From the NCBI GenBank assembly GCA_041891055.1, contig CP169074.1, positions 1,792,001 through 1,856,000 on the forward strand: a stretch of DNA of 64,000 bases, written 5' to 3'. Origin of the DNA: Halorutilales archaeon Cl-col2-1 (GTDB lineage Archaea; Halobacteriota; Halobacteria; Halobacteriales; Afararchaeaceae). A program made the translations under genes and the position numbers. Shown piece by piece: positions 34,829 through 59,584 of this stretch (position 1 is the stretch's first letter; each line of letters starts with the position of its first letter). The notes under the pieces were generated by a model that was given only the letters and a program-made list of their open reading frames with translations, ran no database searches and was not told the DNA's origin.

Positions 34829-34888
34829 ACACAAATATATATTGGGCATATATTATATGTTTCGGTGGAGAATGACGATAGCTTACGG

Positions 34889-44616: not shown

Positions 44617-45721
44617 GATAGGTGCTCAAGACCCACTCGACGAGGTCGAGGATCTCGAAGATCACGACTTCATCTCTTACTTCATCGAGGACATGGAAGC
44701 GTATGGCAAATCTTCCTCAACGCTCTACGAGTACGAACGTGTTCTGCGTGACTTCGACGACTTCACTGACACCCACCACGCGCGCGCCTCGAGACGTGAC
44801 TGCATGGGCTATATCTCCGACCTCCGTAGTCGGGGACTCTCAGCGTCGACGGTCTCGACCTATGCCTCCTATCTCCACAGATTCTACTCGTACCTCGTCA
44901 AGGCGGACGAGTTCCCCCACTCTAACAACCCGATGGCTCTCGTCACTGAGGAGATGAGCGAGGGAATAGACAAGAATCCCCAGAGACGTGAACTCTCGGT
45001 CACCGACGTCACTGAGTTCCTCAAGACTGTGAATCACCCGAGGGACAGATGTATACTCGTCACCCTCTTCAAGACGGGGATGCGCGCGGGTGAGCTTTCG
45101 AACCTCAAACTCGAAGACATCTCACTGACTACTGACCTCGACGATGAGTTCGGTCTCGGTGGAAACGCGCGTCTGAGTCGGAACTCACTCCTCGTCGTTA
45201 GCGACAGAGACGGAAACAAACGTCTGCGTGACACTCTGATCCCCATCGACGACGAGCTCAGGAAAGAGCTCGTGAGATGGCTGCGTGTGCGTCCCGAGAA
45301 TGGTAGTTCTCGTGGGCGCGTGAATCAGAAGATTCACGAACGTCTCGAAGCGGAAGCTTCGATGGCTCGGAAATCAGAGATTTCCGAACGTCCCGAGACT
45401 GACTCGGACGCCGTCTTCGTCTCTCTCAGCAGAGCGTCCGAGACGGGAAGTCTCAGCCCTGAGGCGGTCTCTTCCCTGATGAGGAAGTACACTCAGCCTT
45501 ACGGCTGGTGGGAGGAGGGAAGAGGTCTTGAGGAAAACGTCACCCCGCATTACTGCCGCCATTTCTTCACGACCCATCTCAGAGAGGCTTCGGGAGACGA
45601 CGCCCTCGTCAAGTACCTAAGAGGCGATGTCGGCGGAGACGTGATCGAGACCTACACCCATCAGTGGGGTGACAACGTCCGTGAGAGCTATGAGAAGTAC
45701 ATATACCGTCTCGTTTCCTGA
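44609..45721 (+). CDS. XerA-like tyrosine recombinase with a 33-aa insertion
   Basis: TGMRAGEL, TPHYCRHFFTT, terminal catalytic Tyr (ETYTH). Confidence 0.9.
   Translation: MRRIGAQDPLDEVEDLEDHDFISYFIEDMEAYGKSSSTLYEYERVLRDFDDFTDTHHARASRRDCMGYISDLRSRGLSASTVSTYASYLHRFYSYLVKADEFPHSNNPMALVTEEMSEGIDKNPQRRELSVTDVTEFLKTVNHPRDRCILVTLFKTGMRAGELSNLKLEDISLTTDLDDEFGLGGNARLSRNSLLVVSDRDGNKRLRDTLIPIDDELRKELVRWLRVRPENGSSRGRVNQKIHERLEAEASMARKSEISERPETDSDAVFVSLSRASETGSLSPEAVSSLMRKYTQPYGWWEEGRGLEENVTPHYCRHFFTTHLREASGDDALVKYLRGDVGGDVIETYTHQWGDNVRESYEKYIYRLVS
45292..45390 (+). repeat. Two tandem double-hairpin micro-insertions (51 + 48 bp), in frame
   Basis: Each unit TC...AACG; removal restores WLRVRPETDSD. Confidence 0.9.
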
Positions 45722-45742
45722 GGTATATGTCCCTCATAAACT

Positions 45743-46075
45743 CTATTTCGCTATACTGAACACGGTGACTGTGACGAGACAGACGACGTATCCCACGACG
45801 AAGCCGACGGCAGCCGGTACCAGAGACCCCGAGAGACTGAGAGAGAGTCCTGAGAAGAGACGTCTCAGACCCACGAGAATCCAGACGACCTCGAAGACGA
45901 CACCGATTCCGACGAGGGCTACGACTCCGTAGACGGCGTATCTCACGAGACGGAGGACTTTCTTTATGTCTTGGTACTCCTCCGAGACTTCCTCCAGAGA
46001 TCCGAGTAAGTGTTCTGTGATGATGAGGGCGAGCCTGTACACAGTCGACCGCGAGCCTGAGCCGTCTTGGGTCAT
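45743..46075 (-). CDS. Small membrane protein
   Basis: Two hydrophobic helices. Confidence 0.55.
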   Translation of the reverse strand: MTQDGSGSRSTVYRLALIITEHLLGSLEEVSEEYQDIKKVLRLVRYAVYGVVALVGIGVVFEVVWILVGLRRLFSGLSLSLSGSLVPAAVGFVVGYVVCLVTVTVFSIAK

Positions 46076-46153
46076 GGTTCCGGTGTATAAAGACTCGGGT
46101 GACTTCTACCTTTCGTCCGTATATTTATGTTCTGCCGACACGAGTTACAGCCG

Positions 46154-48319
46154 ATGGGTAATCTCTCGAAGCTCTTCTCGCCTTCACGTGTCGCAGTAAT
46201 TGGAGCGACCGATAGGGAGGGGTCTGTCGGACGTGTGGTGACACAGAACCTCGTCTCGGGGTTCGAGGGAGAGGTGATCGCTGTCAATCCCAACAGGGAC
46301 GAGGTTCTCGGACTTCCGACTTACACCGACGTCGGCTCCGTTCCGGGTGAGATAGACCTGGGCGTCGTAATAGTGCCGGCTCCCGTGGTTCTGGAGGTTC
46401 TCGAAGAGATGGGGAAAGCTGGCGTCACGAACGCCGTCGTCATAACCGCGGGGTTCTCGGAGGCGGGCGACGAGGGGAAGGCGAGAGAGGAGAGGCTGAA
46501 GGAGATCGCCGACGAGTACGGAATCAGCCTCGTAGGTCCCAACTGTATAGGAATAGTAAGTAGTGATTCGGGTCTCAACACGACCTTCACGACCGTGAAA
46601 TACTCGAAGGGAGCCACGTCTTTCATGAGCCAGTCGGGGGCTCTCATAGGTGCAGTCCTCGAATGGGCACCCTCTCACAACATGGGTTTCAACCAAGTCG
46701 TCTCTCTCGGCAACAAGGCTGTACTCGACGAGACCGACTTCATCGAGGACTGGAGTGACGACCCCGACACCGACGTAGTGATGGCATATCTCGAAAGCAT
46801 TGAGGACGGGAGACGTTTCATCAAGAAGACACGTGAGGCTGTGACTGAGACTCCCGTAGTCGCTCTCAAGGCGGGTAGGTCCGAGAAAGGATCGAGGGCG
46901 GCGTCTTCACACACGGGGGCTCTCGCTGGGAGCGACGAGGCGTACGACTCCGCCTTCAGACAGTCAGGCGTCATAAGAGCTGAGACACTTCTCGAACTCT
47001 TCGACTACAGTGACACGCTCGCTGATCAGCCGGTTCCCGAGAAGGACGGCTTAGCAGTGGTCACCAACGGTGGAGGACCCGGGGTCATAGCTACCGACGC
47101 GGTCAGTGACTCGATCGTCTCGTTCGCGGATCTGAGCCACGAGACCGTCGACTACCTCGAAGACCGTCTCCCCGAATCGGCTGTCGTTGAGAATCCTCTC
47201 GACATAATAGGAGACGCAGACGTCGACAGGCTGTCTGACTCACTCGATGCAGTTCTTGGAGATCCTGACGTCGGCGGTGCTCTCGTCATAGTCACTCCGA
47301 ACGGAGTCCTCGACTACAGAGAAGCCGTCGATCCGATAGAGGAAATCCAGAGACGTCACTCGAAGCCCGTAGTGACTTGTATGATGGGCTCCAACGACGA
47401 GACGAGCCAGAGGCTGAGTCAAGCAAACCTACCCGACTTCTTCGATCCTGAGAGGGCGGTCGGGAGCTACGAGGCTCTTGAGAGGTACAGACGTATAAGA
47501 CAGAGATCCCGGGAAGAGAGACACGTCACGGAGTTCGACGTCGACGAGGGGAGGGCACGCGGGATAATCCGAGAAGCCGTCGAAGAGGGTCGTAACCGTC
47601 TCGGCGTCGAGTCGATGGAGATACTCGATGCCTACGGGATACCCACTCCCGACGGCACTGTCGTCGAGACAGCCGACGAAGCCGACGAGGCGGCACGCAG
47701 TATCGACTCCGAAACCGGTACTGTCGTCCTCAAGATAGTCAGCCCCGACATAAGCCACAAGACAGACGTCGGCGGTGTCAGAACGCGTGTCTCCCCAGAC
47801 GACGTCAGAGACGTCTTCTCGGAGATGGTCGAGGAGGTTCGAGACAGACGTCCCGAAGCCGAGATAGAAGGTATTCTCGTACAGGAATCTGTCGACGTCT
47901 CGAAGGGCGAGGAGGTCATAGTCGGTGCGAGAAGCGATCCTCAGTTCGGTCATCTCCTCGTGTTCGGTCTCGGAGGTGTATTCGTCGAGGTCTTCAAGGA
48001 CGTCTCTTTCCGTGTCCCACCTGTCACTCAGCGAGAGGCGGAGGAGATGACCCGCGAGATAGAGTCGGCACCTCTCCTCCGAGGTGCGAGAGGACGTGAC
48101 CCCCTCGATACCGACGGTGTCACTGAAGTCATACAGAGGCTGTCGCAGATGGTGACCGAGATAGATGCGATCGAAGAAGTCGAGGCTAATCCTGTCTTCG
48201 TGGGAACTGGCGGCGTTCAGAAATCTTCTATTTCTGATTCTGAGGACGTCAACCGAAGATTGACGGATGTCGTTGCGCTTGACTTCCGTATGACGGTCGA
48301 CGAGAGCCGGGTCGGTTAA
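46154..48319 (+). CDS. Acetate-CoA ligase (ADP-forming), fused subunits
   Basis: VGPNCIG, SQSGA, SHTGALAG, HKTDVGGV. Confidence 0.92.
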   Translation: MGNLSKLFSPSRVAVIGATDREGSVGRVVTQNLVSGFEGEVIAVNPNRDEVLGLPTYTDVGSVPGEIDLGVVIVPAPVVLEVLEEMGKAGVTNAVVITAGFSEAGDEGKAREERLKEIADEYGISLVGPNCIGIVSSDSGLNTTFTTVKYSKGATSFMSQSGALIGAVLEWAPSHNMGFNQVVSLGNKAVLDETDFIEDWSDDPDTDVVMAYLESIEDGRRFIKKTREAVTETPVVALKAGRSEKGSRAASSHTGALAGSDEAYDSAFRQSGVIRAETLLELFDYSDTLADQPVPEKDGLAVVTNGGGPGVIATDAVSDSIVSFADLSHETVDYLEDRLPESAVVENPLDIIGDADVDRLSDSLDAVLGDPDVGGALVIVTPNGVLDYREAVDPIEEIQRRHSKPVVTCMMGSNDETSQRLSQANLPDFFDPERAVGSYEALERYRRIRQRSREERHVTEFDVDEGRARGIIREAVEEGRNRLGVESMEILDAYGIPTPDGTVVETADEADEAARSIDSETGTVVLKIVSPDISHKTDVGGVRTRVSPDDVRDVFSEMVEEVRDRRPEAEIEGILVQESVDVSKGEEVIVGARSDPQFGHLLVFGLGGVFVEVFKDVSFRVPPVTQREAEEMTREIESAPLLRGARGRDPLDTDGVTEVIQRLSQMVTEIDAIEEVEANPVFVGTGGVQKSSISDSEDVNRRLTDVVALDFRMTVDESRVG
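48214..48267 (-). repeat. Double-hairpin micro-insertion, 54 bp, in frame
   Basis: Minus strand TC-cgtcaatc/ggttgacg...cagaaat/atttctg-AACG. Confidence 0.8.
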
Positions 48320-48324
48320 GATAT

Positions 48325-50061
48325 TTAGTCCTTAGACGACGGTACTGGTGTCAGAGGTTTGTTTTTCCCGTCCCTGAGGCGCACCGTGACAACGGTTCCT
48401 CGCGGCTCCCTGTCTTCGAACTCCAGGTCTCCACCTGATCTCTTGACTATCCAGTGGACGAGCCAGAGTCCGAGACCGCTTCCGTGGTATAAGGGCTCTA
48501 TCTCCCGTTCGTCGCCGAGAACCCCGATGTCCGAATCGGGTATCCTTGATCCGTTGTCCGAGACTCTTATCTCGACCGAGGTGTCGGATTTCTCGACCTC
48601 GACAGACACACGTGGCGTCTCCGTGTCGTTGTGCTCGACAGCGTTGTTGACTAACTCGTCTACTGCACGCGGTATCTGAGGGACTACGTAGGCTGTCGTC
48701 TCTGAGTCTGGGGTGTGAACCTCTATCTCAGCTTCGGGGTATCTCTCCTCATACTCCGAGAGTCTCCTCTCGACTGTCTCGGCGATGTCGACCTCCTCGG
48801 GCGGCGACCTGTCGGAGATTATCTCGACTAACTCGCGTTCCTTGTCAGTGGTGTCGAGCAGACGGTTGCCGACCTCACGTATCTTCTCGGCATATCTTCT
48901 CTCGTCGTCTGTCAGGGACTCCGACTCAGAAAGTTCCTCCGAGTAGCCGAGTATTATGTTCATCTTGTTATGCATGTTGTGGCGGAGGACACGGTCGAAG
49001 ACCTCGAGGTGCTTCTGTCTCTCCTTGAGTTCGCTGTTGAGGACTCGAAGCTCCTTCTCTCTCTTAATACGGTCGAGTGTCGCCTTTGCGTTTCTCGCGA
49101 GTGTCTCGACGAAACGCACGTCTGAGTCGTCGAAAGCTGCCTTGTGTGTCTCACCGACGCTCACGGTTCCGTACCCCTCTATCGGGACGTACATCACCGA
49201 TCTAACGTCTTTCCTGTCGTACTCCGTCTCGACTTCACGTATGTCGTCGAAGACGTATGTCTCCGACTCCCTGTACGCTTTCCCAGCAAGGCTGTCGTGT
49301 ACAGGATACGTCGGCGTTCCGCCTCTGACTTCCTCCGTCTCTGACGTTGACGACACAATAACGAGCTCTTCACTGTCGTCGTCTGTGAAACGCACTCCGT
49401 TTGCGGGGAACCCGAGTACATTCTTCGTCGCCTTGACGATTCTCTGAGCCACCTCGTCGGCGTCGTCGGCGTCTATTAGCTCACGTGTCGTCTCGTGTAG
49501 GCTAGTGAGTATCTCTTCGCTCCTCTGTAGTCTCTCGACGTTCTTCCTCTGGTCTATGGCAAGCTTGAGAAGAGACGCGACTGTCTTTCCTGCGTTTACG
49601 GCGTGGTCGTCGTACTCAGTCTCCTCGCTCGACTCGGGTGCTCCTGTTCCTATGAGTCCGTGCTCACCCACGGGAATCATTATCCCAGACCCCACCGGGA
49701 GTTCGGGATGAACTTCGCTGACATCGTAGATGCTTATGCCGTCACTCTCGAACTGATCCCATTCCAGGTCGTGTCTTCTAATCTCCGTAGGAGCGAACTC
49801 GTCTGCCGACTCGGTTGCTTTTACGAGATTCAGACGTTCTTCCTCCTCATCACGTATCCAGCAAGCCCCGAACGGCAGATCGACTATGTCTGTGAGAGAA
49901 TCCACGGCGATCTCACACAGCCTGTCGATATCTTTCACCCTGTCGTCCTGGAGCCTCCGCGCTGCCTCGTAGACAGACCTGACGGTCTTACCCGGGTCTG
50001 CGTCGAAGTCTGTGCCGGAGTCAGAGCCTGAGGACTGTCCCTCCGAGCCTTTATCCCTCAT
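48325..50061 (-). CDS. GAF-domain sensor histidine kinase
   Basis: Two GAF-like domains, LRHNMHN, HGSGLGLWLV. Confidence 0.9.
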   Translation of the reverse strand: MRDKGSEGQSSGSDSGTDFDADPGKTVRSVYEAARRLQDDRVKDIDRLCEIAVDSLTDIVDLPFGACWIRDEEEERLNLVKATESADEFAPTEIRRHDLEWDQFESDGISIYDVSEVHPELPVGSGIMIPVGEHGLIGTGAPESSEETEYDDHAVNAGKTVASLLKLAIDQRKNVERLQRSEEILTSLHETTRELIDADDADEVAQRIVKATKNVLGFPANGVRFTDDDSEELVIVSSTSETEEVRGGTPTYPVHDSLAGKAYRESETYVFDDIREVETEYDRKDVRSVMYVPIEGYGTVSVGETHKAAFDDSDVRFVETLARNAKATLDRIKREKELRVLNSELKERQKHLEVFDRVLRHNMHNKMNIILGYSEELSESESLTDDERRYAEKIREVGNRLLDTTDKERELVEIISDRSPPEEVDIAETVERRLSEYEERYPEAEIEVHTPDSETTAYVVPQIPRAVDELVNNAVEHNDTETPRVSVEVEKSDTSVEIRVSDNGSRIPDSDIGVLGDEREIEPLYHGSGLGLWLVHWIVKRSGGDLEFEDREPRGTVVTVRLRDGKNKPLTPVPSSKD

Positions 50062-50127
50062 ATGACACCGTTCCTACAACCCTACACGACTGAGGATAAT
50101 AGATTTTTGGGAGGTTTATAAGGAGCC

Positions 50128-50310
50128 TCAGGCAATCTCGCCGAAGGAGCCGAAGTACCTGTCGAGTGCTGCCTCAACTGCTTCGTCTTCGTCGTCGAAC
50201 TCGTCGAGTGCCTCACTCAGAAGCTCCAGGAAGTAGGAGTCGTTGACGAGACGGCTCGCGTTACGTCTCGTGAGTCTGCGTCCGTCGTCGGAATCTGTGT
50301 TCTTCCTCAT
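50128..50310 (-). CDS. Small hypothetical protein
   Basis: Acidic 60-aa ORF in frame with host codon style. Confidence 0.5.
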   Translation of the reverse strand: MRKNTDSDDGRRLTRRNASRLVNDSYFLELLSEALDEFDDEDEAVEAALDRYFGSFGEIA

Positions 50311-50354
50311 CCTCTGCGCCCTAAGTCTTCCTCGTTGAAGAAACTGTCTGTGGT

Positions 50355-50711
50355 TTACACGAGATCGGCTTCTGGGTCGCCTTTAGTTTTGTAGAGATCG
50401 TCCCAGGCGGTTATGCCGCCTTGAAGGTTGTAGATCTCGTCGAAGTCGTCGAGGTTGGAGAGGAAGTCGCAGGCGTCCTGACTTCTCGATCCGCTGTGGC
50501 AGTAGACGAGGAGTTTGTCGCCTTCTATCTCGTCGACCCTGTCCGGGAGTATTTCGACCGGTATCAGATGGTCGACGCCGGGTACTCTCTTCCACTCGTA
50601 CTCGTCGGGATTCCTCACATCGAGGAGAGTATAATCGCCGCCCTCTACCATCTCCTTTGCTTCGTCAGGTGTTACGTCGTTGAAGTTCTGATTCTGTGTT
50701 ATCTCTTTCAT
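50355..50711 (-). CDS. Rhodanese-domain protein
   Basis: LDVRNPDEY, YCHSGSRS, NLQGGITAW. Confidence 0.9.
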   Translation of the reverse strand: MKEITQNQNFNDVTPDEAKEMVEGGDYTLLDVRNPDEYEWKRVPGVDHLIPVEILPDRVDEIEGDKLLVYCHSGSRSQDACDFLSNLDDFDEIYNLQGGITAWDDLYKTKGDPEADLV

Positions 50712-50768
50712 ATTACAACTGTAGTACCACAGCCATATAAGTCTTACCACCACTGAAGAATGGTGGTG

Positions 50769-51371
50769 TTATTTCAGCGCAAGGATCGACTCGCCTGCTC
50801 TAACTGTGTCACCCTCATCGACTTCGAGGTCGTCACGTGAGTATCCGCTAGGAAAGACGATGTCGACGCGTGAACTGAACGCAATCATTCCTATGCGTTC
50901 GCCCCTTTCTACGGAGTCACCTTCATCGAGGTAGGACGTCACTCGTCTCGCGACTGTGCCCGCTATCTGTACCGTCTCTAACTCTCCGTCCGGGGTCTCG
51001 AACCGTGTTACCACGCGCTCGTTTCTCTCGCTTGACTTCGAGAAGGCAGGGAGATGACTTCCGTCTATATGTGTCTGTGATACGACCTTTCCGTCGAGAG
51101 GAGCTCTGTTGACGTGGACGTTGTGGAGGTTCATGAAGACGCCGACGCGGAGCCCTCCCTCCTCCTGCCTTACGACTGAGACACGTCCGTCGGCGGGAGA
51201 GACGACGCCCTCGTCAGGCACGTCACGGTCGGGGTCTCTGAAGAAGGCGGCGATGAGTACGGGAACGCCTAGAAGAGACAGGCTTAGGGGGGAGTCCCAG
51301 AACGGCACTGCGACGAGTGGGAGACAGCCCAGTAGAATCCATCCCAGGGAGCCTTCTGCTAGTCTCGGCAT
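50769..51371 (-). CDS. psd: Archaetidylserine/phosphatidylserine decarboxylase
   Basis: FFRDPDR, SPADG, HVNRAP, FSSRVD. Confidence 0.9.
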   Translation of the reverse strand: MPRLAEGSLGWILLGCLPLVAVPFWDSPLSLSLLGVPVLIAAFFRDPDRDVPDEGVVSPADGRVSVVRQEEGGLRVGVFMNLHNVHVNRAPLDGKVVSQTHIDGSHLPAFSKSSERNERVVTRFETPDGELETVQIAGTVARRVTSYLDEGDSVERGERIGMIAFSSRVDIVFPSGYSRDDLEVDEGDTVRAGESILALK

Positions 51372-51460
51372 TTAACGTTGAGACGCCGACTTGACGGTTA
51401 AGGATTTCCGTCCACTAGTGTCAACTACCCCACCCTACTTCGCTCGGTCTGACGACCTCA

Positions 51461-51557
51461 TCTGTAAATCTTTGATTTACAGGCACGCGAATCGAAGATT
51501 CGCGAACGTCTCAAACTCTACGAGTTTGAGGGCTCGGAAATCAGAGATTTCCGAACG
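51461..51557 (+). repeat. Two tandem double-hairpin micro-insertions (48 + 49 bp)
   Basis: 51461-51508 and 51509-51557, each TC...AACG. Confidence 0.9.
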
Positions 51558-52899
51558 CTCGTTGAGAATGGGGCTTGTCCATGTACTCAACCTCTAACCT
51601 CTCGGTGGAGGAACTACCCTCACTCGGTTTCAGTGTACCGGACTTAAGGGCAAGTTGACACGTTGCCCGTCCGTCCTGTGACTTTTGCACACGACGGACG
51701 TGTTGCGAATCGTTAGATTCGCATACGTCTGCAAAGCTTTGCTTTGTAACATAACGAAGACCGACATTCTTAGAAGCGTTGTAGTCTGCGTCTACCGAAT
51801 ACCCACACTCTCGACACTCAAAGTCGTGTTTCGTCCTGCGGTTACTTCGGTCGGTGTGTCCACAGCGAGAACAAGTCTGACTCGTGTACTCTGGATTCAC
51901 CGACTCGACAGAAACGCCGTACTCTTCGGCTTTGTACTCCACGAACGCGACGAACTGATTGAACGCCCACTGCTGAAACTCTTTGTTGTTCGAGATACGC
52001 TCACGGATGCCGTCAAGCTCCTCGAACACAATAGTAGAACAGTCGTAGCGTACAGCCTCTTCTACGATTTCGTTAGCCCACTTGTGGTACTTCTGATTAC
52101 TCCACTGGCTGAAACGGTCGCCCATACGTTCTATGACCTCGTGAGCGCGACGCGAGCCGTTTCGTTGGAGTGACGCACGCCTACTCTCGTATTCGTCACG
52201 TTCGTGGTTGATATGGTCGCTTGAACCTACGAACCGCCCCGTAGAGGTGACGGCGAAGCTACCTGTGCTGTTCAGGTCTACACCGAGAACCGTTCGCAAA
52301 TCTTCAATCTGCGAGCCATCGAAGCTCCCGCTTCGAGACGTTCCGCTCTCGGTTTCTCCTACGTCCTCTTCTTTCACGACTGAGATATGCAGGTAGTAGT
52401 CGCCGCCCCTGTGGTGTAGCGTCGCCTCTTTCCGTCCCCACTCTTCGGAAAGGTACTCTGTCTGGGGGTTGTCGCCCGTTTCGTCAATCACGAAGTCGGC
52501 TTGTACACGCCCGTCCACGGTTGCGAGAGTACAGCCTTCGTCGGTATACGTGACGGTTCGGTAGTCGTAGGCGACGAACCAACTCTGGAACGTGGGTTTG
52601 GTGGCTTGTTCGCCTTCTTTCCACCGGTTGATTACCTGTTGTAGGCTGTCTACGGCGTAGTCACGCGCCTTCTGTATCAGTCCGGTGTTGAGTCCGGTCT
52701 GTTCCTTGATGTCATCGTAGGTCTGTTCGTGTAGCCACGTCTTGCGCGTGTCTATGTGACCGCCGTCAGTTCGGTTGTTCCATGCGTAGTCTACGGTGTA
52801 CTGACATGCTTCTCGGAACGCCCTGAACGTCTCTCGTAGGCGTTCCTCGTCGGAGCCGTCAACGTCAAGCTTGACCTGTACAGTACGCCGTAGCTCCAT
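51541..52899 (-). CDS. tnpB: RNA-guided endonuclease TnpB with two in-frame insertions
   Basis: LGVDLN / VFEEL / DADYNAS; zinc finger; insertions at 51701-51751 and 52291-52338. Confidence 0.93.
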   Translation of the reverse strand: MELRRTVQVKLDVDGSDEERLRETFRAFREACQYTVDYAWNNRTDGGHIDTRKTWLHEQTYDDIKEQTGLNTGLIQKARDYAVDSLQQVINRWKEGEQATKPTFQSWFVAYDYRTVTYTDEGCTLATVDGRVQADFVIDETGDNPQTEYLSEEWGRKEATLHHRGGDYYLHISVVKEEDVGETESGTSRSGSFDGSQIEDLRTVLGVDLNSTGSFAVTSTGRFVGSSDHINHERDEYESRRASLQRNGSRRAHEVIERMGDRFSQWSNQKYHKWANEIVEEAVRYDCSTIVFEELDGIRERISNNKEFQQWAFNQFVAFVEYKAEEYGVSVESVNPEYTSQTCSRCGHTDRSNRRTKHDFECRECGYSVDADYNASKNVGLRYVTKQSFADVCESNDSQHVRRVQKSQDGRATCQLALKSGTLKPSEGSSSTERLEVEYMDKPHSQRAFGNL

Positions 52900-52994
52900 G
52901 CTTATATATTATATCTATACTTACTTAGTTCTTGTGGGGTAATTTACCCACTCAAAGCACTAAGGCTTAAGTAGTGGTGGTCTATATCACCACC

Positions 52995-53138
52995 ATGGCA
53001 GAAGTCAGAGTACAAAATCCAGACATACACGAAGAGAAGACAGCAGATGGAAAGGGACGTGTATATTTGGGCAAAGATTATGAGAACAGGAAGGTCAGAA
53101 TAGTGGTGGAAGTAGTTGACGACGAACCGGAAGAGTAG
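52995..53138 (+). CDS. Small transposon-associated AbrB-like protein, 47 aa
   Basis: Hand-read MAEVRVQNPDIHEEKTADGKGRVYLGKDYENRKVRIVVEVV. Confidence 0.6.
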   Translation: MAEVRVQNPDIHEEKTADGKGRVYLGKDYENRKVRIVVEVVDDEPEE

Positions 53139-53152
53139 GAGTTGACGGGCTG

Positions 53153-53224
53153 TCACAAAATCTCCGATCTTGTTGGCTCGCTAATCTATGATTAGCGGGC
53201 ACGTAAATCTTAGATTTACGAACG
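53153..53224 (+). repeat. Triple-hairpin micro-insertion, 72 bp
   Basis: TC-hairpin-tggct-hairpin-ggca-hairpin-AACG. Confidence 0.85.
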
Positions 53225-53290
53225 GTTCGTAGAGGGTGGAGTCTTAGCCCTGCCAAAAGATAAAATACTCTTACCGAGTATATGGAATAG

Positions 53291-54160
53291 ATGATCGAGG
53301 CAGACGGGCTCCGGAAGGAGTACGGCGGGTTCGTAGCTGTCGACGGTATCTCGTTCTCGGTCGACGACGGCGAGATATTTGGGATAATAGGTCCCAACGG
53401 CGCGGGGAAGACTACGACCTTAAAGATGGTCTCGGGTCTCGTCGAGCCTACGGCTGGGAGTGCGAGGGTCGCTGGATACGACTCCGAGTCGCTCGACATG
53501 AGGTACCATCTCGGCTACCTCCCCGAAGAGTCGCCGCTCTACGAGGACATGACAGCGGTCTCGTACCTCAAGTTCTTCGCCGACCTCTACGACGTTCCGA
53601 GCCACGTCGCCGAGGAGAGGATACACGAGACACTCGACCGTCTCGACCTCGAACACCGCGACAGGAAGATAGGCGACATGTCTAAGGGTATGAAGAGGAA
53701 GGTCGCCATAACACGGTCACTTGTCAACGACCCCGACGTTCTGATATACGACGAGCCGGCGAGCGGTCTCGATCCCCTCACGACTAACTACATAATCGAG
53801 TTCATGCGTGACCTCCGCGACGAGGGAATGACCATGATCTTCAGCGCGCACAACCTCTTCCATGTCGAGGAGATCTGTGACCGAGTCGTAATACTCAACG
53901 AAGGTGATGTAGTCGCACGTGGCACACTCGACGAGATACGTGACGACTACGGCGGAACCGAGTACCACGTCTACTCGACCGTCGACGTCGAGGGACGCGA
54001 GACGGAGAGGGAGGACGGCAGGTACAGGATAGTCCTCGACTCGATGGACGGCGTCGAGGCACTCCGCGACGAGATCCACGCCGAGGGCGGCGAGATAGAC
54101 GACATACGTACACACGAGCCGAGCCTCGAAGAGATATTCCTCAACGTAGCGAGGAGGTAA
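53291..54160 (+). CDS. ABC exporter ATP-binding protein
   Basis: GPNGAGKTT, MSKGMKRK, YDEP. Confidence 0.93.
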   Translation: MIEADGLRKEYGGFVAVDGISFSVDDGEIFGIIGPNGAGKTTTLKMVSGLVEPTAGSARVAGYDSESLDMRYHLGYLPEESPLYEDMTAVSYLKFFADLYDVPSHVAEERIHETLDRLDLEHRDRKIGDMSKGMKRKVAITRSLVNDPDVLIYDEPASGLDPLTTNYIIEFMRDLRDEGMTMIFSAHNLFHVEEICDRVVILNEGDVVARGTLDEIRDDYGGTEYHVYSTVDVEGRETEREDGRYRIVLDSMDGVEALRDEIHAEGGEIDDIRTHEPSLEEIFLNVARR

Positions 54161-54161
54161 T

Positions 54162-55955
54162 GTGAGGCTCTCGAAGATACTCCGTATATCCAAGTGGGAG
54201 GTCACGAAGTCGACTGGCGACATCGACAGACGCACCGGTGTTCTCGTTCTAGTCGGTGTCTTAGCCGTCGGGGCTCTCGTCCTCGGATACGTCCAGGCGG
54301 GAGCCGTTCTCGATCAGGGAATATACCGTGTCGGAGTCTCGGAGGAGTCGGAGTACTACGACGCCGTCGAAGTCTCCGATCGTCTTGTCGCACGCGAGCC
54401 GAGTATCGAGGACGTCAGGAACGGTGACCTCGACGTCTCTATAGACGACGACATCATACGTTACCACGACTCGAAGAAGGGGAAGGCTGCGGTGTCGGAG
54501 CTCAGGAGCGCGGTACAGGACTACAACGGCTTACTCATGTCGAGGGAGGCAGACGAGGGGAGAGGAGTAGCCGCTTTTCCCGTGAGGGTGAACCTCCTCT
54601 ATGTCAACCAGAATATCACAGTCGGCGGAGGTGACACAGGAGACGGAGCCAGTGGCGGTGGCGGGGGAGCCGGCGGAGGAACGGGTGGTGGAACAGGTGG
54701 TACGGGCAGTGACACGGGTCAGACACCTGTGCCACCCGTCTCGGGCGGCGGCGGTTCGAATATATTTGACTCGAACGAAGGAGCCACGACGCCCTCGGGA
54801 ATATCGCCTCCGTTCCCGTTCGAGTCACTCATACTCGCGTTCGCCTTCATAGTCCCGATGAACTTCATCGTACAGGCTTACGCGAGTAGCATGATCGACG
54901 AGAGGATAAACAGACGCGGTGAGCTACTCCTGATCTCTCCCGTCACGAGGTTCGACGTGATAGCGGGGAAGACTCTTCCCTACTTCGTCGGCATGCTCGG
55001 AGTTGCCTCGCTCACTGCGGGAGGTATAGGCTACGTGTCGGGCGAACTATCGGCTCGGTCGGTGGCTGTGATGGTCTCAGCCGTCGTCCCGGTTATGCTT
55101 GCCTTCCTCTCGACTTCGTTCGTAGGAGCGATGTTCTCCCGGTCGTTCAAGGAGCTCACATTCGTGACAGTCTCTATAAGTGTCTTCCTCACCGCATACG
55201 TCTTCATACCCGCTATATTCACCGACGTCCATCCCATCGCCGTGATATCGCCCATAACACTCGTCGTGCAGGTCTTAGAAGGGAGTCGGGTCGCTGTCTC
55301 CGACTACGTCTTCTCGACACTTCCGCTCTACCTCACCTCGGGAGTCCTCTTCGCACTCGGAGGTGGGGTCTACCGCGAGGAGGACATGTTCACTCAGCGT
55401 CCCGTGCCTCTCAAGGCACTCGACTCGGTGGCGAGCCTCATCTACCGACGTCTCAGCGTCTTCAAGCTGAGTATACTCCTCATACCCTTCGTCTTCGGAG
55501 CCGAGCTACTCGGAATTGCTACACTCTTCGCGCTCCCCGTCGGTGTCTCCGTTCCCGCACTCATGGTTATGATAGCCGTGATCGAGGAGGTCGCAAAGAG
55601 CGTCCATATCTACGCGGGCTTCGAGAAGTCCTACTTCGAGAGAACGCGGCGCGAGGCGGTCGTACTCGGAAGTCTGAGCGGCTTCGGCTTCTTCGTCGGC
55701 GAGAAGATAACTCTCGTGTCCCAGTTAGTTGGACTCCCACAGCTCGAACTCGGACGTGCAGCCTTCGGAGGACATCCCGGACTTCCGACTGCACTCGGTC
55801 TACTCCTCGCGCCGCTCGTCCTCCACGTCGTAACTGCGTCAGTCTCGTCGCTCGGTGCGTCGCGGGGAAGACGTGGATACGCGATAGGTCTCGCGGGAGC
55901 CGTCGTGATACACGCAGTCTACAACATAACGGTGGTGACTACACTTGGGATTTAA
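54162..55955 (+). CDS. ABC-2 permease fused to a PrsW-like intramembrane protease domain
   Basis: ABC-2 TMs; IEEVAK, GFFVGEK, LH..., IHAVYN. Confidence 0.8.
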   Translation: MRLSKILRISKWEVTKSTGDIDRRTGVLVLVGVLAVGALVLGYVQAGAVLDQGIYRVGVSEESEYYDAVEVSDRLVAREPSIEDVRNGDLDVSIDDDIIRYHDSKKGKAAVSELRSAVQDYNGLLMSREADEGRGVAAFPVRVNLLYVNQNITVGGGDTGDGASGGGGGAGGGTGGGTGGTGSDTGQTPVPPVSGGGGSNIFDSNEGATTPSGISPPFPFESLILAFAFIVPMNFIVQAYASSMIDERINRRGELLLISPVTRFDVIAGKTLPYFVGMLGVASLTAGGIGYVSGELSARSVAVMVSAVVPVMLAFLSTSFVGAMFSRSFKELTFVTVSISVFLTAYVFIPAIFTDVHPIAVISPITLVVQVLEGSRVAVSDYVFSTLPLYLTSGVLFALGGGVYREEDMFTQRPVPLKALDSVASLIYRRLSVFKLSILLIPFVFGAELLGIATLFALPVGVSVPALMVMIAVIEEVAKSVHIYAGFEKSYFERTRREAVVLGSLSGFGFFVGEKITLVSQLVGLPQLELGRAAFGGHPGLPTALGLLLAPLVLHVVTASVSSLGASRGRRGYAIGLAGAVVIHAVYNITVVTTLGI

Positions 55956-57015
55956 ACAGGTACTCACGGTCACTCGACGCGAACTCTCGTCGCTGAGGAG
56001 CGAGAAGACAGTCGTCCTCGCCCTCATGATACAGCTCTTCATAGCCGCTTTCTCGTCTTTCCTCGTCGTGGGTCTCGTCTCGATGTACAGCCCCGACGCC
56101 GTCGGGGACAGCGGCTTCACGGTCGACTACGGGGTCACAGGGGATGCTGCCGACGACGTAGCGCGTGCGATAGACGACGAGGACGGCTGGAGGGTCTCGG
56201 AGTACGAAAGCTACGAGGCGGCTATGTCGGAGTTCAGTGGGGGTGGTCTCGACGTAGTACTCGACACCTCACGTCTCGAAAACGGACGTATCGAAATAAC
56301 GGCTGTCGTCCCCGACTCGAGTATACGTACGACCCTCATCGTCGTACAGGCGAAACAGGCTCTCCAGACCGTCGAGAGGAGCCAGAGAGCCGAGATGAGT
56401 TCGACCCTCGAACGTCAGCCTGTTCCCCTTCCTGAGAAGGTCGGGTCGAGCCCCTACTTCGGCTTCACCTACACGGTTCTAATACCACTCCTGATGTTTC
56501 TCCCAGTCTTCATAAGCGGGAGCATCTCGTCCGACTCTATCACGGAGGAGTTCGAGAGGGGAACATTCGATCTACTTAGGACGGCTCCGATCTCCGAGAA
56601 CGAGATAATCGACGGCAAGATGGCGGCTATGGCTGTCCTCTCGCCCGTACAGGCGGCGGTCTGGCTCGGACTCCTGCGTTTCAACGGCACTGCGGTAGAA
56701 CGTCCCTTCCTACTCGTCGCCGTCGTCGCCGCCTTCTCCGTGATAACCGTGACCGCGGGCTCGACGGTCGCGCTCCGGTTTAGAGACAGGAAGAAGGCAC
56801 AGTTCATCTACTCCGTGAGCCTCATGCTTATATTCGGCGCGCTCCATCTCGACCTCGGCGTCATACCCGAGTCACCCACCAACACCGTCGCGAAGCTAGC
56901 TATAGGTAGTTCGACCCCCGAGACGTATCTCATGGTCGCCGTCTACGCCGTTCTCGCGGTCGTGGGCTATCTCGCCGTCAGACGCGGGTTCGTCCCCTCG
57001 CTCTCGGATTCGTAA
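55945..57015 (+). CDS. ABC-2 permease
   Basis: EEFERGTFDLLRTAP..IIDGK. Confidence 0.85.
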   Translation: MGFKQVLTVTRRELSSLRSEKTVVLALMIQLFIAAFSSFLVVGLVSMYSPDAVGDSGFTVDYGVTGDAADDVARAIDDEDGWRVSEYESYEAAMSEFSGGGLDVVLDTSRLENGRIEITAVVPDSSIRTTLIVVQAKQALQTVERSQRAEMSSTLERQPVPLPEKVGSSPYFGFTYTVLIPLLMFLPVFISGSISSDSITEEFERGTFDLLRTAPISENEIIDGKMAAMAVLSPVQAAVWLGLLRFNGTAVERPFLLVAVVAAFSVITVTAGSTVALRFRDRKKAQFIYSVSLMLIFGALHLDLGVIPESPTNTVAKLAIGSSTPETYLMVAVYAVLAVVGYLAVRRGFVPSLSDS

Positions 57016-57058
57016 CGTAACAAATAGATACTTATCCGAGGAGGACGACCTACGGAGT

Positions 57059-57238
57059 ATGCAGGAAACCTGGGTAAACGTCGAATGTAACAGCTGTGGA
57101 GAGACTTGGGAGGTAAAGGTCTCGGAGCTCCCGGTCGACAACGGAACGTTCAGGTGTAAGGAGTGTGGCAACGAGTCTCCCGTCAAGGAGTTCCTCAAGA
57201 CTGAGAAGGATCTCGAAGTCTACGACGAACTCAAGTAG
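57059..57238 (+). CDS. Small zinc-finger protein, 59 aa
   Basis: Hand-read CNSCG...CKECG. Confidence 0.75.
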   Translation: MQETWVNVECNSCGETWEVKVSELPVDNGTFRCKECGNESPVKEFLKTEKDLEVYDELK

Positions 57239-57250
57239 TACCGACTCATA

Positions 57251-57883
57251 TCACACCGCGTCGACTGCGGTCTCAAGTAGGTCAAGTGCACGTACGGCGT
57301 CGTCTCTCTCTACGACTATTATCGTCTCGGTGTAACACGAGGTGATGTCGACTATGTTTATCTCCTCCGACGTGAAACGTGATATCATGTACGACAGAAC
57401 ACCCGAGACATCGGTGATCTCCTCGGGCGACTCGACGACGATACCCGTGAGGTCGTGTCTCTCCTCGACTACCTCGCCCTCGCCGTCCTCGATACCCTCC
57501 CTGACCTCGTCGGCGTAGGTGTCGTCTGTGACTACCGTGGTGTAACTCCTCCCACGAACGAGATGGAAGAAGCCCGACTCTATACCTAAGTCTCCCACAC
57601 GTGTCGCCGTGAAAGAGACGACGTTTCCCCTCAGAGAGACCCTCGAACCGCCGAGCACCTCCCTTACCCTCTCGACGTTCTCGACACCGTCTTCGAGCTC
57701 GTCGCCGTACCTTCTCAGTGCCGTCGTCACCGCCTCTATGTTGACGTCTCCGCCGACCTCCTCTTCGACCTCGGGCTTTATCTTCCTCGCTAAAGCGCGG
57801 TAGTTGACGACGCCCTCACGGAGACAGTCGAGCATATACGGATAACGAGATACGACATCGCGGCAGTCCTGTGCGAGTGACAT
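57251..57883 (-). CDS. ACT-domain putative regulator
   Basis: GVVNYRALARKI N-terminus, ACT-like C-terminus; divergent from argG. Confidence 0.7.
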   Translation of the reverse strand: MSLAQDCRDVVSRYPYMLDCLREGVVNYRALARKIKPEVEEEVGGDVNIEAVTTALRRYGDELEDGVENVERVREVLGGSRVSLRGNVVSFTATRVGDLGIESGFFHLVRGRSYTTVVTDDTYADEVREGIEDGEGEVVEERHDLTGIVVESPEEITDVSGVLSYMISRFTSEEINIVDITSCYTETIIVVERDDAVRALDLLETAVDAV

Positions 57884-57989
57884 ACATGTAGTACGTCATA
57901 ACAGACTAAAATACTGTGGTTTTGAACTATATAAGTCATTAACGACCCAAATACAAAGACTTTAGTTCTTTTACGTCTTAGACTGAGGT

Positions 57990-59243
57990 ATGACAGAGAC
58001 AGATACACGTAAAGCAGTCCTCGCCTTCTCGGGAGGTCTCGACACGAGCGTCTGTGTTCCCCTTCTCAAGGAGGAGTACGGATACGACGAGGTCATTCCC
58101 GTAGTCGTCGACGTCGGACAGCCCGAGGAGGACATGGAGGAAGCCTACGAACGCGCTGAGGAGCTTGACCTCGATCTCCGTGTCGTCGAGGCGAGCGAGG
58201 AGTACGCCGAGGAGTACATACTCCCCCTCATAAAGGCAAACGGAAGCTACGAGGGTTACCCGATGGGCACGAGCATAGCGCGTCCCGTCATAGCGCGCCA
58301 CTGTCTCGACATAGCCCTCGAAGAGGACGCCGACGGTCTCGCACACGGCTGTACGGGAAAGGGCAACGACCAGCTCAGATTCGAGGCGGTCTGGCGTGAG
58401 TCCGACCTGGAGATAATTGCTCCGATGCGTGAGAAGAACCTCACTCGTGAGTGGGAAATAGAGTACGCACAGGATCACGGCATGAGCGTCCGAGCGACGA
58501 AGGAGGAGCCGTGGTCGATAGACTCGAACCTCTGGAGCCGTTCGATAGAGGGAGGAGACCTCGAAAACCCGTCGAACGAGCCTCCTGAGGAGATCTTCGA
58601 GTGGACGGCGTCTCCCGTCGATGCCCCCGACGAACCCGAGGTAGTCGAGATAGAGTTCGAGGAGGGCAGACCCGTCGCTCTAAACGTCGTCGAGGGAACC
58701 TCGACTGGCTCTCAGACTCCGTCTGGGAATGGAAACGAGATGGATCTTCTCGAACTCATAAGGGAGCTACACGACGTCGCGGGGAAACACGGCGTCGGAA
58801 GAAACGACATGATGGAGGATCGCGTCTTAGGTCTCAAGGTGCGCGAGGTCTACGAGCACCCTGCGGCGACAGTCCTCCTCAAGGCACACGAGGATCTCGA
58901 GAGCCTCGTCCTCACACGTTCACAGCTCAAGTTCAAGTCGGGGGTCGAGGAAGAATGGAGCGAACTCGCCTACAAGGGACTCGTCAACGAGCCTCTCTAC
59001 GACGACCTCAACGCCTTCATAGAGTCGACACAGGAGAACGTCACCGGAACCGTGAGGGTCAAGCTCCACAAGGGAACCGCACGCGTCGTCGGACGTGAGA
59101 GTCCCTACGGTCTCTACGGCGAGGAGATGGTCTCGTTCGACACGGGAAGCGTGACACAGGACATAGACCAGACCGACGCCGTCGGCTTCTCGAAGTACCA
59201 CGGCATACAGGGACGGTTCAGGAAGAAGTTCAAGGATCAGTAG
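57990..59243 (+). CDS. argG: Argininosuccinate synthase with a 15-aa insertion
   Basis: AFSGGLDTS, HGCTGKGNDQLRFE, SIDSNLW. Confidence 0.97.
   Translation: MTETDTRKAVLAFSGGLDTSVCVPLLKEEYGYDEVIPVVVDVGQPEEDMEEAYERAEELDLDLRVVEASEEYAEEYILPLIKANGSYEGYPMGTSIARPVIARHCLDIALEEDADGLAHGCTGKGNDQLRFEAVWRESDLEIIAPMREKNLTREWEIEYAQDHGMSVRATKEEPWSIDSNLWSRSIEGGDLENPSNEPPEEIFEWTASPVDAPDEPEVVEIEFEEGRPVALNVVEGTSTGSQTPSGNGNEMDLLELIRELHDVAGKHGVGRNDMMEDRVLGLKVREVYEHPAATVLLKAHEDLESLVLTRSQLKFKSGVEEEWSELAYKGLVNEPLYDDLNAFIESTQENVTGTVRVKLHKGTARVVGRESPYGLYGEEMVSFDTGSVTQDIDQTDAVGFSKYHGIQGRFRKKFKDQ
58687..58731 (+). repeat. Double-hairpin micro-insertion, 45 bp, in frame
   Basis: TC-gtcgagg gaa cctcgac-tggct-ctcagac tcc gtctggg-AATG. 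Confidence 0.85.
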
Positions 59244-59575: not shown

Positions 59576-59584
59576 ACTCGAAAG

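Follow-up and report, generated by a model that had tools for sequence, protein, structure and literature searches.

The closest described counterparts of the repeats considered here are the Rickettsia palindromic elements (RPEs), which lie in frame within unrelated housekeeping genes and add peptides to the encoded proteins, with other copies situated in intergenic regions. In-frame insertion of RPEs in genes is noted in the part of Minnick 2024 (PMC10969869) drawn on here, and the portion of Di Nocera 2013 (PMC3733652) at hand classes RPE-4 and RPE-6 with the CGTC-tagged REPs and reports intragenic REPs. As characterised in that same portion, CGTC-tagged REPs have stems of 8-9 bp with loops of 4-5 nt, a frequent CGTC tag and a CCA-like tail, and they form dimers, mainly head-to-head, and clusters that are mostly intergenic; some are intragenic and encode 20-30 residues, and no dedicated transposase is obvious. 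The text of that paper names bacteria only, with 'archaea' occurring solely in the reference list.

REPIN-RAYT systems combine high-copy hairpins with a single-copy Y1 (HUH) gene adjoined by hairpins, the REPINs themselves being inverted REP doublets that form one long hairpin. The SDRs of filamentous cyanobacteria, which Elhai and colleagues are said to have described in 2008, are reportedly hairpin-like units of 21-27 nt that nest, occur in tandem and sometimes lie in genes. Prokaryotic MITEs are roughly 100-400 bp in size, and the unit described below is well under this. They are small, non-coding, polymorphic and multi-copy, with terminal inverted repeats and a fixed-length target-site duplication, and the part of Minnick 2024 (PMC10969869) consulted includes archaeal examples from Sulfolobus, Halobacterium and Haloquadratum.

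A family of mini-hairpins in a haloarchaeal genome

The window, a 64,000-nucleotide stretch of the genome of Halorutilales archaeon Cl-col2-1 (contig CP169074.1, positions 1,792,001 to 1,856,000, forward strand), carries many copies of a small hairpin of about 21 nt, whose stem measures 7-11 bp (mode 8), whose loop has 3 nt and whose core reads CGnnAATC-NNN-GATTnnCG. Two different hairpins, together with TGGC-like and ACGTC-like linkers, make up a unit about 49 nt long. Such units stand alone, in pairs or in arrays, the largest of which have nine hairpins. The dimer order is direct, with two unlike hairpins side by side, and the arrays run head-to-tail. Loops are 3 nt long in 160 of 189 array hairpins; TGCCA or TGGCA linkers are present without being universal, and no terminal inverted repeats were found element-wide.

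This repeat family of about 300 mini-hairpins is real and far beyond chance. On contig C1, scoring with a position weight matrix returned 298 hairpins as compared with 44 in shuffled sequence, and neighbouring hairpins at 23-28 nt spacing numbered 89 as compared with 5, while the AATC-NNN-GATT core occurs 194 times and its reversed control twice. Some 250-300 hairpin copies lie above the shuffle level, and a two-hairpin detector at a score of at least 18 found 103 units, as opposed to a single unit in the shuffle. The letters of the stem differ between copies while complementarity is kept: Watson-Crick pairs, of all four types, are retained at stem position 5 in 172 of 194 copies and at position 6 in 171 of 194. 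Of the 211 strong hairpins, 67 (32%) have CGT[CT] or its complement no more than a few nucleotides away, versus about 15% for random positions. In well-preserved arrays, the CGTC tag is regular.

Genome-wide, 216 of 334 hairpins are intergenic, in a genome of which intergenic sequence makes up 13%. Hairpins are also enriched 7-fold around tnpB elements, with 69/334 (21%) at most 500 nt from a tnpB hit. Beyond this genome, the hairpin-dimer unit is present at low copy across the haloarchaeal order (a core match in 100 of 151 genomes, as compared with 2 for the control), which suggests a long-lived repeat family. No archaeal description of such a hairpin-dimer family was found in the literature searched.

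Compared by description, the family is an analogue of the RPEs and not a member: the host is an archaeon rather than Rickettsia, the units are about 49 nt and built of two unlike hairpins whereas RPE-1 type elements are about 100-150 bp, and the present family also stands out by its arrays, its roughly 20 stem types and its association with tnpB. The likeness to Rickettsia elements proposed in the initial annotation was nevertheless apt, given the classing of RPE-4 and RPE-6 with CGTC-tagged REPs and the intragenic REPs in the cited portion of PMC3733652. With the REPs described there, the present family shares stem length, the formation of dimers and clusters, a mostly intergenic location with some intragenic copies, and the lack of an obvious dedicated transposase; linkers such as GACGTT and TGCCA recall the CGTC tag and the CCA-like tail. 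It differs in its 3-nt loops, in a tag that adjoins only 32% of strong hairpins, and in its direct hetero-dimers. Similarly, high copy number and a single Y1 gene adjoined by hairpins recall REPIN-RAYT systems, but the dimers are not inverted doublets, and the Y1 gene, a tnpA of IS200 type, is paired with tnpB and has hairpins on one side only. MITEs share the small size, non-coding nature, polymorphism, copy number and short flanking direct repeats, whereas flanking repeats of variable length (about 3-13 nt) and a modular tandem build distinguish the present units. The SDRs belong to another domain of life and have another sequence.

Insertions within host genes

Six inserts of this kind lie within genes in the window: 45 nt in argG, 51 and 48 nt in a XerA-like gene, 54 nt in an acetate-CoA ligase gene, and 48 and 51 nt in tnpB. 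The initial annotation had described all six as multiples of three, in frame and free of stop codons, and this holds gene by gene. The host genes are genuine, and the inserts are presumably translated, judging from the intact reading frames.

In the case of argG (argininosuccinate synthase, 57990-59243, + strand), all 21 genomes examined yielded an orthologue (E<=0.001), each of these relatives belonging to the haloarchaeal order. The 45-nt insert (58686-58730, + strand), encoding VVEGTSTGSQTPSGN at residues 233-247, reads CGTC, hairpin, TGGC, hairpin, and is bounded on either side by AAACG. It is found in this genome (G000) and in the same-genus G001, and is absent from the ten other aligned orthologues, namely that of G011 at 78% identity and nine more. 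The ADP-forming (ACD-type) acetate-CoA ligase gene (46127-48319, + strand) carries a 54-nt insert (48218-48271, + strand) that encodes the 18 residues QKSSISDSEDVNRRLTDV and corresponds to one decayed hairpin-dimer unit; it too is found in G000 and G001 and is absent from all four outgroups (G015, G018, G005 and G011). Both the argG and the ACD inserts are decayed and give weak repeat scores. Hairpins appear to be in the course of loss in these older inserts.

The XerA-like tyrosine recombinase gene (44609-45721, + strand; orthologues in 5/5 genomes searched) bears a 99-nt insert at approximately 45303-45401 (+ strand), a locus at which empty and filled sites were compared. It encodes 33 residues, GSSRGRVNQKIHERLEAEASMARKSEISERPET, and consists of units of 51 and 48 nt with four hairpins. 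A 13-nt direct repeat with one mismatch (45290-45302 and 45389-45401) bounds the insert, which is absent from the sister species G001 and from 4/4 outgroups. The insert matches the intergenic array C1:259816-259880 at 91% identity over 65 nt and tnpB-internal units at 90-92% over 53 nt, the second XerA unit matching the tnpB insert of about 48 nt.

The tnpB gene itself (IS200/IS605-type, IS1341-like; 51541-52899, - strand), for which 33 tblastn HSPs are present in the genome, holds two internal units. One is a 51-nt insert (51703-51753, - strand) encoding the 17 residues YVTKQSFADVCESNDSQ from two hairpins, and it is missing from 11 of 11 aligned paralogues. The other, of about 48 nt (52288-52335, - strand, the left edge being approximate), encodes 16 residues (..SGSFDGSQIEDLRT) immediately before the RuvC-I motif GVDL; two of the 11 paralogues share it and nine lack it. 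The argG, ACD and tnpB inserts have one architecture, CGTC, hairpin, TGGC, hairpin.

Further host genes encode unrelated proteins, with Pfam matches for nine of ten, and the same insert peptides, such as RESEDSRAHE.., ..VNQRLTD, VRKSLISE and SQIEDLRT, recur in unrelated enzymes. Inserts in the genes for SAM synthetase and ThiN are absent from 4/4 orthologues each outside the genus and, like those of argG and ACD, are kept in both of its species. The polarity of insertion or deletion was set by outgroups for argG, ACD, XerA, SAM synthetase and ThiN only. The proteins would thus carry additional segments of 15-33 residues, as had been proposed, that outgroup orthologues, or all or most of the tnpB paralogues aligned, lack. 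Distant orthologues, from other families of the order, are without them in every alignment made (argG 10/10, ACD 4/4, XerA 4/4).

The further proposal that these segments form surface loops is weakly supported by structure prediction. In two AlphaFold models of mediocre quality (pLDDT 69 and 59.5), the inserts mostly occupy non-conserved regions modelled with low confidence, flanked by core secondary-structure elements; in argG, for instance, residues 236-246 have pLDDT below 50 and are framed by a strand that ends at 234 and a short one at about 249-250. The XerA insert, though, includes a helix predicted at 238-251.

Polymorphism and the reading-frame filter

The elements have been mobile recently, as the XerA insert is absent both from the sister species and from a metagenome contig that differs by 9 letters over 358. 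Joints that skip these 99 nt occur in contigs of runs X2, X3 and X4, and metagenome contigs also lack units of 48 and 49 nt. The contigs without units are 97-99% identical to the window.

Indels were collected from an alignment of G000 with G001 that spans 1.01 Mb, with a mean identity of about 91% in the first 0.36 Mb. With the division into coding and intergenic sequence resting on a simple codon-bias gene caller, 22 of 28 hairpin-containing indels in coding sequence are multiples of three, versus 11 of 30 intergenic ones (p=0.0016). In a subset picked by eye from these 58 events as gains or losses of family copies, the proportions are 10/10 and 7/16 (Fisher p=0.004), the curation having left out 18 coding events (12 of them multiples of three, six with a remainder of two) and 14 intergenic ones. 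The curated coding events measure 99, 54, 54, 51, 51, 48, 48, 48, 48 and 45 nt, and the intergenic ones 254, 240, 219, 194, 162, 155, 119, 105, 97, 92, 51, 49, 49, 48, 48 and 46 nt. Wherever an ORF is intact in one of the two species, no out-of-frame copy of the family was found retained in its counterpart.

A frame bias between coding and non-coding copies, predicted in the initial annotation, is thus present genome-wide, and the contrast agrees with its suggestion that selection keeps frame-preserving copies. The element has no special property in this respect: indels without hairpins show the same bias (77/95 coding versus 30/67 intergenic), and the bias therefore reflects generic purifying selection. 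Selection presumably filters the insertions, rather than the element aiming for frame. As for the route by which a 49-nt unit becomes one of 48, 51 or 54 nt, this is often a matter of loops of 4 nt in place of 3, and 4-nt loops are found in 11 of 36 coding hairpins as compared with 4 of 166 intergenic ones (p=1e-6).

Units outside genes and at tnpB elements

Outside intact gene bodies, polymorphic intergenic single units measure 46, 48, 48, 49, 49 and 51 nt. An array of four hairpins (51461-51554) extends over the stop codon of the tnpB gene described above, in the omega-RNA-coding 3' region, and its 48-nt unit at 51458-51506 is extra relative to G001 and is skipped at a 48-nt joint in metagenome runs X1, X2 and X3. 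Intergenic hairpins also lie upstream of this tnpB (53151-53233), where G001 is longer by 162 nt, and a polymorphic single unit with a net length of 48 nt relative to G001 is present at 59609-59657, where contigs of the same three runs have a joint that skips 49 nt with one letter between. A second tnpB (33424-34665, - strand) has a hairpin array on its 3' side, in its omega-RNA region (33148-33462), and arrays totalling at least nine hairpins upstream (34876-35247). A further intergenic array occupies 12794-12930.

Units colonise the ends of tnpB elements, and tnpB paralogues vary in whether they have them. That the hairpins are mere parts of IS200/IS605 ends or of omega-RNA is ruled out by this variability and by the share of hairpins found within 500 nt of tnpB.

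Origin and spread of the inserts

Probably, the inserts are copies of a dispersed and still-active REP-like mini-hairpin family, of which only stop-free variants with a length divisible by three survive in genes. Copies of the unit are gained and lost between sister species, most of them lying between genes or in the ends and omega-RNA regions of tnpB elements, sites at which a self-folding hairpin is presumably tolerated. When a unit lands in a gene, the survivors would be in-frame and stop-free, typically of 45, 48, 51, 54 or 99 nt, and would add a hydrophilic segment of 15-33 residues between secondary-structure elements. As to how the copies are made, we favour, tentatively and at somewhat less than even odds, either template switching guided by microhomology or copying from a donor array in the manner of gene conversion. 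Direct repeats at the junctions are between about 3 and 13 nt long, two of them reaching into the first hairpin arm, and such variable lengths favour microhomology over a transposase with a fixed stagger.

A transposase acting in trans is possible but rather unlikely. Here, the units would be non-autonomous elements that the IS200/IS605 Y1 transposase (TnpA) mobilises in single-stranded form and inserts beside a CGTC-like target, as an archaeal counterpart of REP/REPIN-RAYT systems. A single Y1_Tnp gene is present in the genome (C1:979038-979397; PF01797), in keeping with the typically single-copy RAYTs of the part of PMC5581495 drawn on, and its translation has a HuH-like DHVH motif. An array of six hairpins directly follows this gene, and this 211-nt block recurs at 98% identity at two loci without a tnpA or tnpB match. 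The enrichment of hairpins at tnpB elements and their colonisation of element ends point the same way, as do several junctions with CGTC-like sequence on both sides and the Y1 genes of G001, G011, G093 and G005, all of which have 15-56 core matches. However, no Y1 hit was obtained in G061 (99% completeness), which carries 20 core matches, and the flanking repeats, some of which copy a non-CGTC target (TATC, CGNGA), are unlike the fixed, duplication-free insertion of IS200/IS605. Moreover, TnpA looks like an ordinary IS200-type enzyme; the relevant part of Quentin 2018 (PMC6006769) gives only subclass 1.1 for Archaea and reports RAYT classes only in bacteria. The units are also direct dimers of two unlike hairpins rather than inverted REP doublets.

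A composite reading is equally doubtful. According to it, an order-wide hairpin-dimer element, selected for its structure, would have expanded in this genus by a route linked to single-stranded DNA or to replication at IS200/IS605 elements, with either TnpA acting in trans or stalled hairpins prompting template switching. Its coding-competent sub-families, 48, 51 or 54 nt in length and characterised by 4-nt loops and acidic frames free of stops, would seed peptide loops into essential enzymes and TnpB, and hairpins into the omega-RNA region.

It is improbable that the units are functional modules, such as protein linkers or signals for RNA stability or termination, kept by the host for their benefit. 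The conservation of the architecture across many genera of the order, the compensatory preservation of stem pairing and the inserts retained in both species of the genus would fit this explanation, but presence and absence differ freely between sister species and in metagenome contigs nearly identical to the window, the host proteins are unrelated, the inserted peptides lie mostly in low-confidence, non-conserved stretches, and hairpins are eroding in the older inserts, those of ACD and argG. That the inserts are ordinary lineage-specific loop indels or slippage products with a coincidental likeness to hairpins is most improbable: in-frame indels of 15-60 nt are common, as the 77 hairpin-free coding examples attest, and the argG and ACD inserts score weakly, but the XerA and tnpB inserts are 90-92% identical over 53-65 nt to arrays and units, all six inserts share a two-hairpin architecture with matching linkers, their peptides recur in unrelated enzymes, and two-hairpin units greatly exceed the shuffle.

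Implications

The in-frame colonisation of genes by palindromic repeats, documented in bacteria for Rickettsia RPEs and intragenic REPs, is here caught under way in an archaeon. Sister species differ in the insertions they carry, natural populations vary in them too, and essential enzymes are struck, among them argininosuccinate synthase, SAM synthetase, thymidylate kinase and ThiN. With two sister genomes showing each site precisely in its empty and filled forms, the mechanism of insertion becomes testable, and the contrast in loop length shows the route by which a 49-nt unit reaches compatibility with the reading frame. Hairpins in omega-RNA-coding regions and in tnpB itself bear on how the guide-RNA scaffolds of TnpB tolerate or acquire extra stems. 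If the reading of a structure-selected, coding-competent element were true, the family would represent an archaeal generator of variation in both proteins and guide-RNA scaffolds.

Short in-frame insertions in coding sequences

Six short blocks interrupt four protein-coding genes: one of 45 nt in argG (57990-59243, plus strand), two of 51 and 48 nt (99 nt in total) in a gene for a XerA-like tyrosine recombinase (44609-45721, plus strand), one of 54 nt in the gene for ADP-forming acetate-CoA ligase (46127-48319, plus strand), and two of 48 and 51 nt in a tnpB gene (51541-52899, minus strand). As the initial annotation had stated, all six have lengths divisible by three and are free of stop codons, for which reason intron-like removal at the RNA level is disfavoured. 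That the blocks are insertions is borne out by orthologues from the order, from which those of argG, the ligase and the XerA-like gene are missing. The argG insert adds 15 residues (VVEGTSTGSQTPSGN, residues 233-247) and is found in Halorutilales archaeon Cl-col2-1 and in a sister species of the same genus (98% identity), but is missing from another genome of the order, G011 (78% identity), and from nine more orthologues. Likewise, 18 extra residues of the ligase are shared by the host and the sister species and are lacking in four outgroups, while the 33 extra residues of the XerA-like protein are present in the host only, the sister species and four outgroups being without them. For tnpB, a paralogue alignment places the 16-residue block in two of 11 paralogues and the 17-residue block in the window copy alone.

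Over 65 nt the XerA insert shares 91% identity with an intergenic array, and over 53 nt 90-92% with a unit inside tnpB, showing that the inserts are bona fide members of one repeat family. Those in argG and the ligase gene are more decayed but still follow the order CGTC, hairpin, TGGC, hairpin. A length difference of another kind is seen in a sensor kinase gene (48325-50061, minus strand), where a block at 48576-48788, 195 nt net and in frame in the host, is replaced by 16 other letters in the sister species and in contigs from two metagenome runs (X2 and X3); this block does not belong to the hairpin family.

The proteins had been expected to carry the inserts as surface loops, and AlphaFold2 models built on shallow alignments support this weakly. 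In the ArgG model (12 sequences, mean pLDDT 69) the insert begins in the last residues of a strand at 227-234 and reaches almost to a short strand at about 249-250, with pLDDT below 50 at residues 236-246. In the XerA-like model (6 sequences, mean pLDDT 59.5) the insert at 232-264 lies between a helix at 215-227 and a later strand, and pLDDT falls below 50 at 232-241 and 254-265. The low-pLDDT stretches fit a tolerated loop, although the XerA insert holds a predicted helix (238-251) and such models are weak evidence.

Anatomy and abundance of the hairpin family

A window-wide repeat search recovered a family of repeats of about 33-60 nt with an internal palindrome, with copies within the XerA-like gene, at the tnpB 3' end and elsewhere at several further sites. 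Reading of the DNA and a hairpin scan of the window resolved the micro-insertions into mini-hairpins with a stem of 7-11 bp, a loop usually of 3 nt, and the consensus CGnnAATC-NNN-GATTnnCG. Consecutive hairpins are separated by short linkers and lie 23-27 nt apart, in arrays of up to nine hairpins. In well-preserved arrays GACGTT or AACGTC linkers alternate with TGCCA or TGGC, from which it follows that two unlike hairpins make up each repeating unit, a dimer of about 49 nt. At gathering thresholds, Rfam matched only a tRNA in the window, and the hairpins matched no family.

Counts were made with Python detectors at ad hoc thresholds in the host genome (2.06 Mb, four contigs). On C1, the contig that holds the window (1792001-1856000), an array-trained position weight matrix found 298 hairpins at a score of at least 3 (44 in a shuffled sequence), neighbours at 23-28 nt spacing numbered 89 (5 in a block shuffle), and a two-hairpin detector at a score of at least 18 found 103 units (1 in a shuffle). 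An unbiased search for AATC-NNN-GATT, the core by itself, gave 194 occurrences, whereas a reversed control gave two. Moving outward along the stem, the first two positions beyond this core form Watson-Crick pairs in 172 and 171 of the 194 copies, with all four pair types in use; stem pairing is maintained while stem sequence varies. With gene calls from a purpose-made codon-bias caller (1,922 genes, 87% coding), the 334 hairpins divide into 216 intergenic, 88 within genes and 30 at gene edges. A comparison of unit orientation with replichore and host-gene strand yielded no usable signal: linker-based calling left 65 of the 103 units without orientation, and tag-based calls were discarded because the near-palindromic ACGT tag itself had produced them. 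Between two paralogous arrays (C1:1161072-1161160 and window 33309-33397), one hairpin loop is inverted (tac versus gta) and its stem kept, as if the entire palindrome had flipped.

When genes were scanned for two-hairpin units and for hairpins of high score, more host genes emerged, and nine of ten additional hosts belong to ordinary Pfam families: archaeal SAM synthetase, thymidylate kinase, ThiN, M24 peptidase, class I/II aminotransferase, type I phosphodiesterase, thioredoxin, beta-CASP nuclease and DUF3209. Two of these were compared with outgroups. SAM synthetase has 18 additional residues adjoining a highly conserved block, and ThiN has 16; in each case the residues are present in the host and the sister species and in none of four outgroups. 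Peptides such as RESEDSRAHE.., ..VNQRLTD, VRKSLISE and SQIEDLRT recur in unrelated proteins because the shared DNA is read in a small number of favoured frames.

Insert length and the reading frame

The initial annotation anticipated a genome-wide bias toward multiples of three in coding sequence, and this bias is present. Of 1.13 Mb fetched from the sister species, 1.01 Mb was aligned to the host (over the first 0.36 Mb, mean identity is about 91%), revealing 232 indels with at least 15 extra nt in either genome. Among the 220 whose net length reaches 15 nt or more, hairpin-containing events are multiples of three in 22 of 28 cases within coding sequence and 11 of 30 in intergenic DNA (Fisher p=0.0016). 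Events lacking hairpins give 77 of 95 and 30 of 67, respectively; since these are equally biased, the frame filter is general purifying selection.

The same bias is seen when clear family insertions are chosen by eye from the alignments and the others dropped. All ten curated coding events (99, 54, 54, 51, 51, 48, 48, 48, 48 and 45 nt) are multiples of three, as opposed to seven of 16 intergenic events (254, 240, 219, 194, 162, 155, 119, 105, 97, 92, 51, 49, 49, 48, 48 and 46 nt; Fisher p=0.004). Curation left out 14 intergenic and 18 coding events, the latter (12 of them multiples of three, six with remainder two) comprising simple repeats, regions of poor alignment, a 113-nt element and an artefact from a run of N. 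A check for ORFs spanning the empty site found, among 26 intergenic events, no out-of-frame family copy that breaks an ORF intact in the other species. Strong hairpins have 4-nt loops in 11 of 36 copies within coding sequence versus four of 166 in intergenic DNA (p=1e-6), and these loops are a route from the canonical 49-nt unit to 48, 51 or 54 nt.

The sole spanning-ORF match was the 113-nt element, which is unrelated to the family and lies near an ORF start. It is built of hairpins, has flanking direct repeats of 8-9 nt, and is present or absent between the two species at two loci (C1:100969 in the host, and the sister-species site matching C1:1645741); it looks MITE-like.

Presence and absence in natural populations

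Contigs from four public metagenome runs were compared over window positions 44000-60000. A joint without the 99-nt XerA insert occurs in runs of two studies, and the contig from one run (X4) that lacks the insert differs by just 9 letters over 358. Metagenome contigs also skip a 48-nt unit at 51458-51506 and a unit at 59609-59657. These skipped units are presence/absence polymorphisms.

Junctions and the mechanism of spread

In the sister species the empty XerA site reads ..GTGCGTCCCGAGAATGACTCGG.., and in the host a direct repeat of 13 nt, imperfect at one position, bounds the 99 nt; this repeat resembles CGTC followed by the start of a CGAGAAC-type hairpin. At other junctions the direct repeats are about 3-6 nt, frequently but not always CGTC-like, and at one further junction identity to the target extends into the first hairpin arm. 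Insert sizes are frequently whole multiples of the unit. The variable repeat length and the identity reaching into the element argue against a fixed-stagger transposase and suggest microhomology copying, whereby a donor array would be copied by template switching or a gene-conversion-like event.

Alternatively, the units may be mobilised by the single IS200-type Y1 transposase of the genome, whose gene (C1:979038-979397) is followed by a six-hairpin array lying in a 211-nt block that recurs at two other loci. Consistent with this, hairpins are 7-fold enriched around tnpB, with 69 of 334 lying within 500 nt of tnpB matches that cover 2.8% of the genome; however, in another genome of the order, G061, the core matches 20 times but Y1 gives no match. 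Fold-back synthesis of the first hairpin arm from the target was rejected in view of the limited set of recurring stem types and a G-T mismatch in the XerA hairpin.

Association with tnpB and the omega-RNA region

Among tnpB paralogues, the conserved omega-RNA-coding 3' region carries units nested within its terminal stem-loop, and the left end carries them as well; two paralogues (C1:682575 and C2:112983) differ by exactly one 49-nt unit. Within the window, nested hairpin sites of the omega-RNA region lie at 51380-51560 and 33148-33462. A self-folding hairpin would be tolerated in this region. The genome's sole Y1 transposase gene is arranged head-to-head with a tnpB (C1:979038-979620), and at the copies of the 211-nt six-hairpin block at C1:533432 and C2:51514 (98% identity) no match to the tnpA or tnpB portion of the query was found.

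Distribution across the order

Of 151 genomes from the order, the host among them, 100 have a match to a core pattern and two to a control pattern. The host has 71 matches, the sister species 56 and G093 37, while most other genomes have 0-5. In examples taken from four other genera, the two-hairpin unit is likewise flanked by CGTC and AACG. The family thus is old and order-wide, and has expanded in this genus. At loci in other genera (L088-L097 of G061, and L098-L104), the two-hairpin unit stands beside a further conserved hairpin of the CCGGAAGAC..GTCTTCCG type, which suggests a larger composite repeat in those genera.

Other features of the window

The 3' 47 nt of a tRNA gene (7511-7583) are repeated 4.9 kb downstream (12462-12508, 98% identity), and between the two GC falls to 0.43-0.45 at 8001-12000. 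From these features the interval looks like a small element integrated at the tRNA gene. An ORF at 13044-15602 contains five repeat copies with a period of 369-384 nt (13374-14936), and would thus encode a protein with long tandem repeats.

Relation to known palindromic repeats

The observation of in-frame insertions made in the initial annotation is confirmed, and its interpretation, by analogy to Rickettsia palindromic elements (RPEs), is supported. In Di Nocera et al. 2013 (PMC3733652), GTAG- and CGTC-tagged REPs are described in bacteria, including intragenic copies coding for 20-30 residues, RPE-4 and RPE-6 are placed in the CGTC class, and 'archaea' occurs in the reference list only. Minnick 2024 (PMC10969869) catalogues archaeal MITEs and singles out RPEs as the prime example of insertion in frame, and Quentin et al. 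2018 (PMC6006769) report only IS200-type TnpA for Archaea. Within an open-access library of papers, no description came up of haloarchaeal elements that are REP-like or palindromic and in frame.

The haloarchaeal hairpin family works in the same manner as RPEs and intragenic REPs, but is not a member of these families, agreement in loop length, dimer geometry and RAYT class being lacking or unproven. This combination of like working and differing features marks it as an archaeal variant of the RPE/intragenic-REP phenomenon. While in-frame insertion of hairpin repeats is already known in bacteria, what is new here is the host domain, the modular build from hairpins, the length variants adapted to coding sequence, and the nesting in the omega-RNA region of tnpB.
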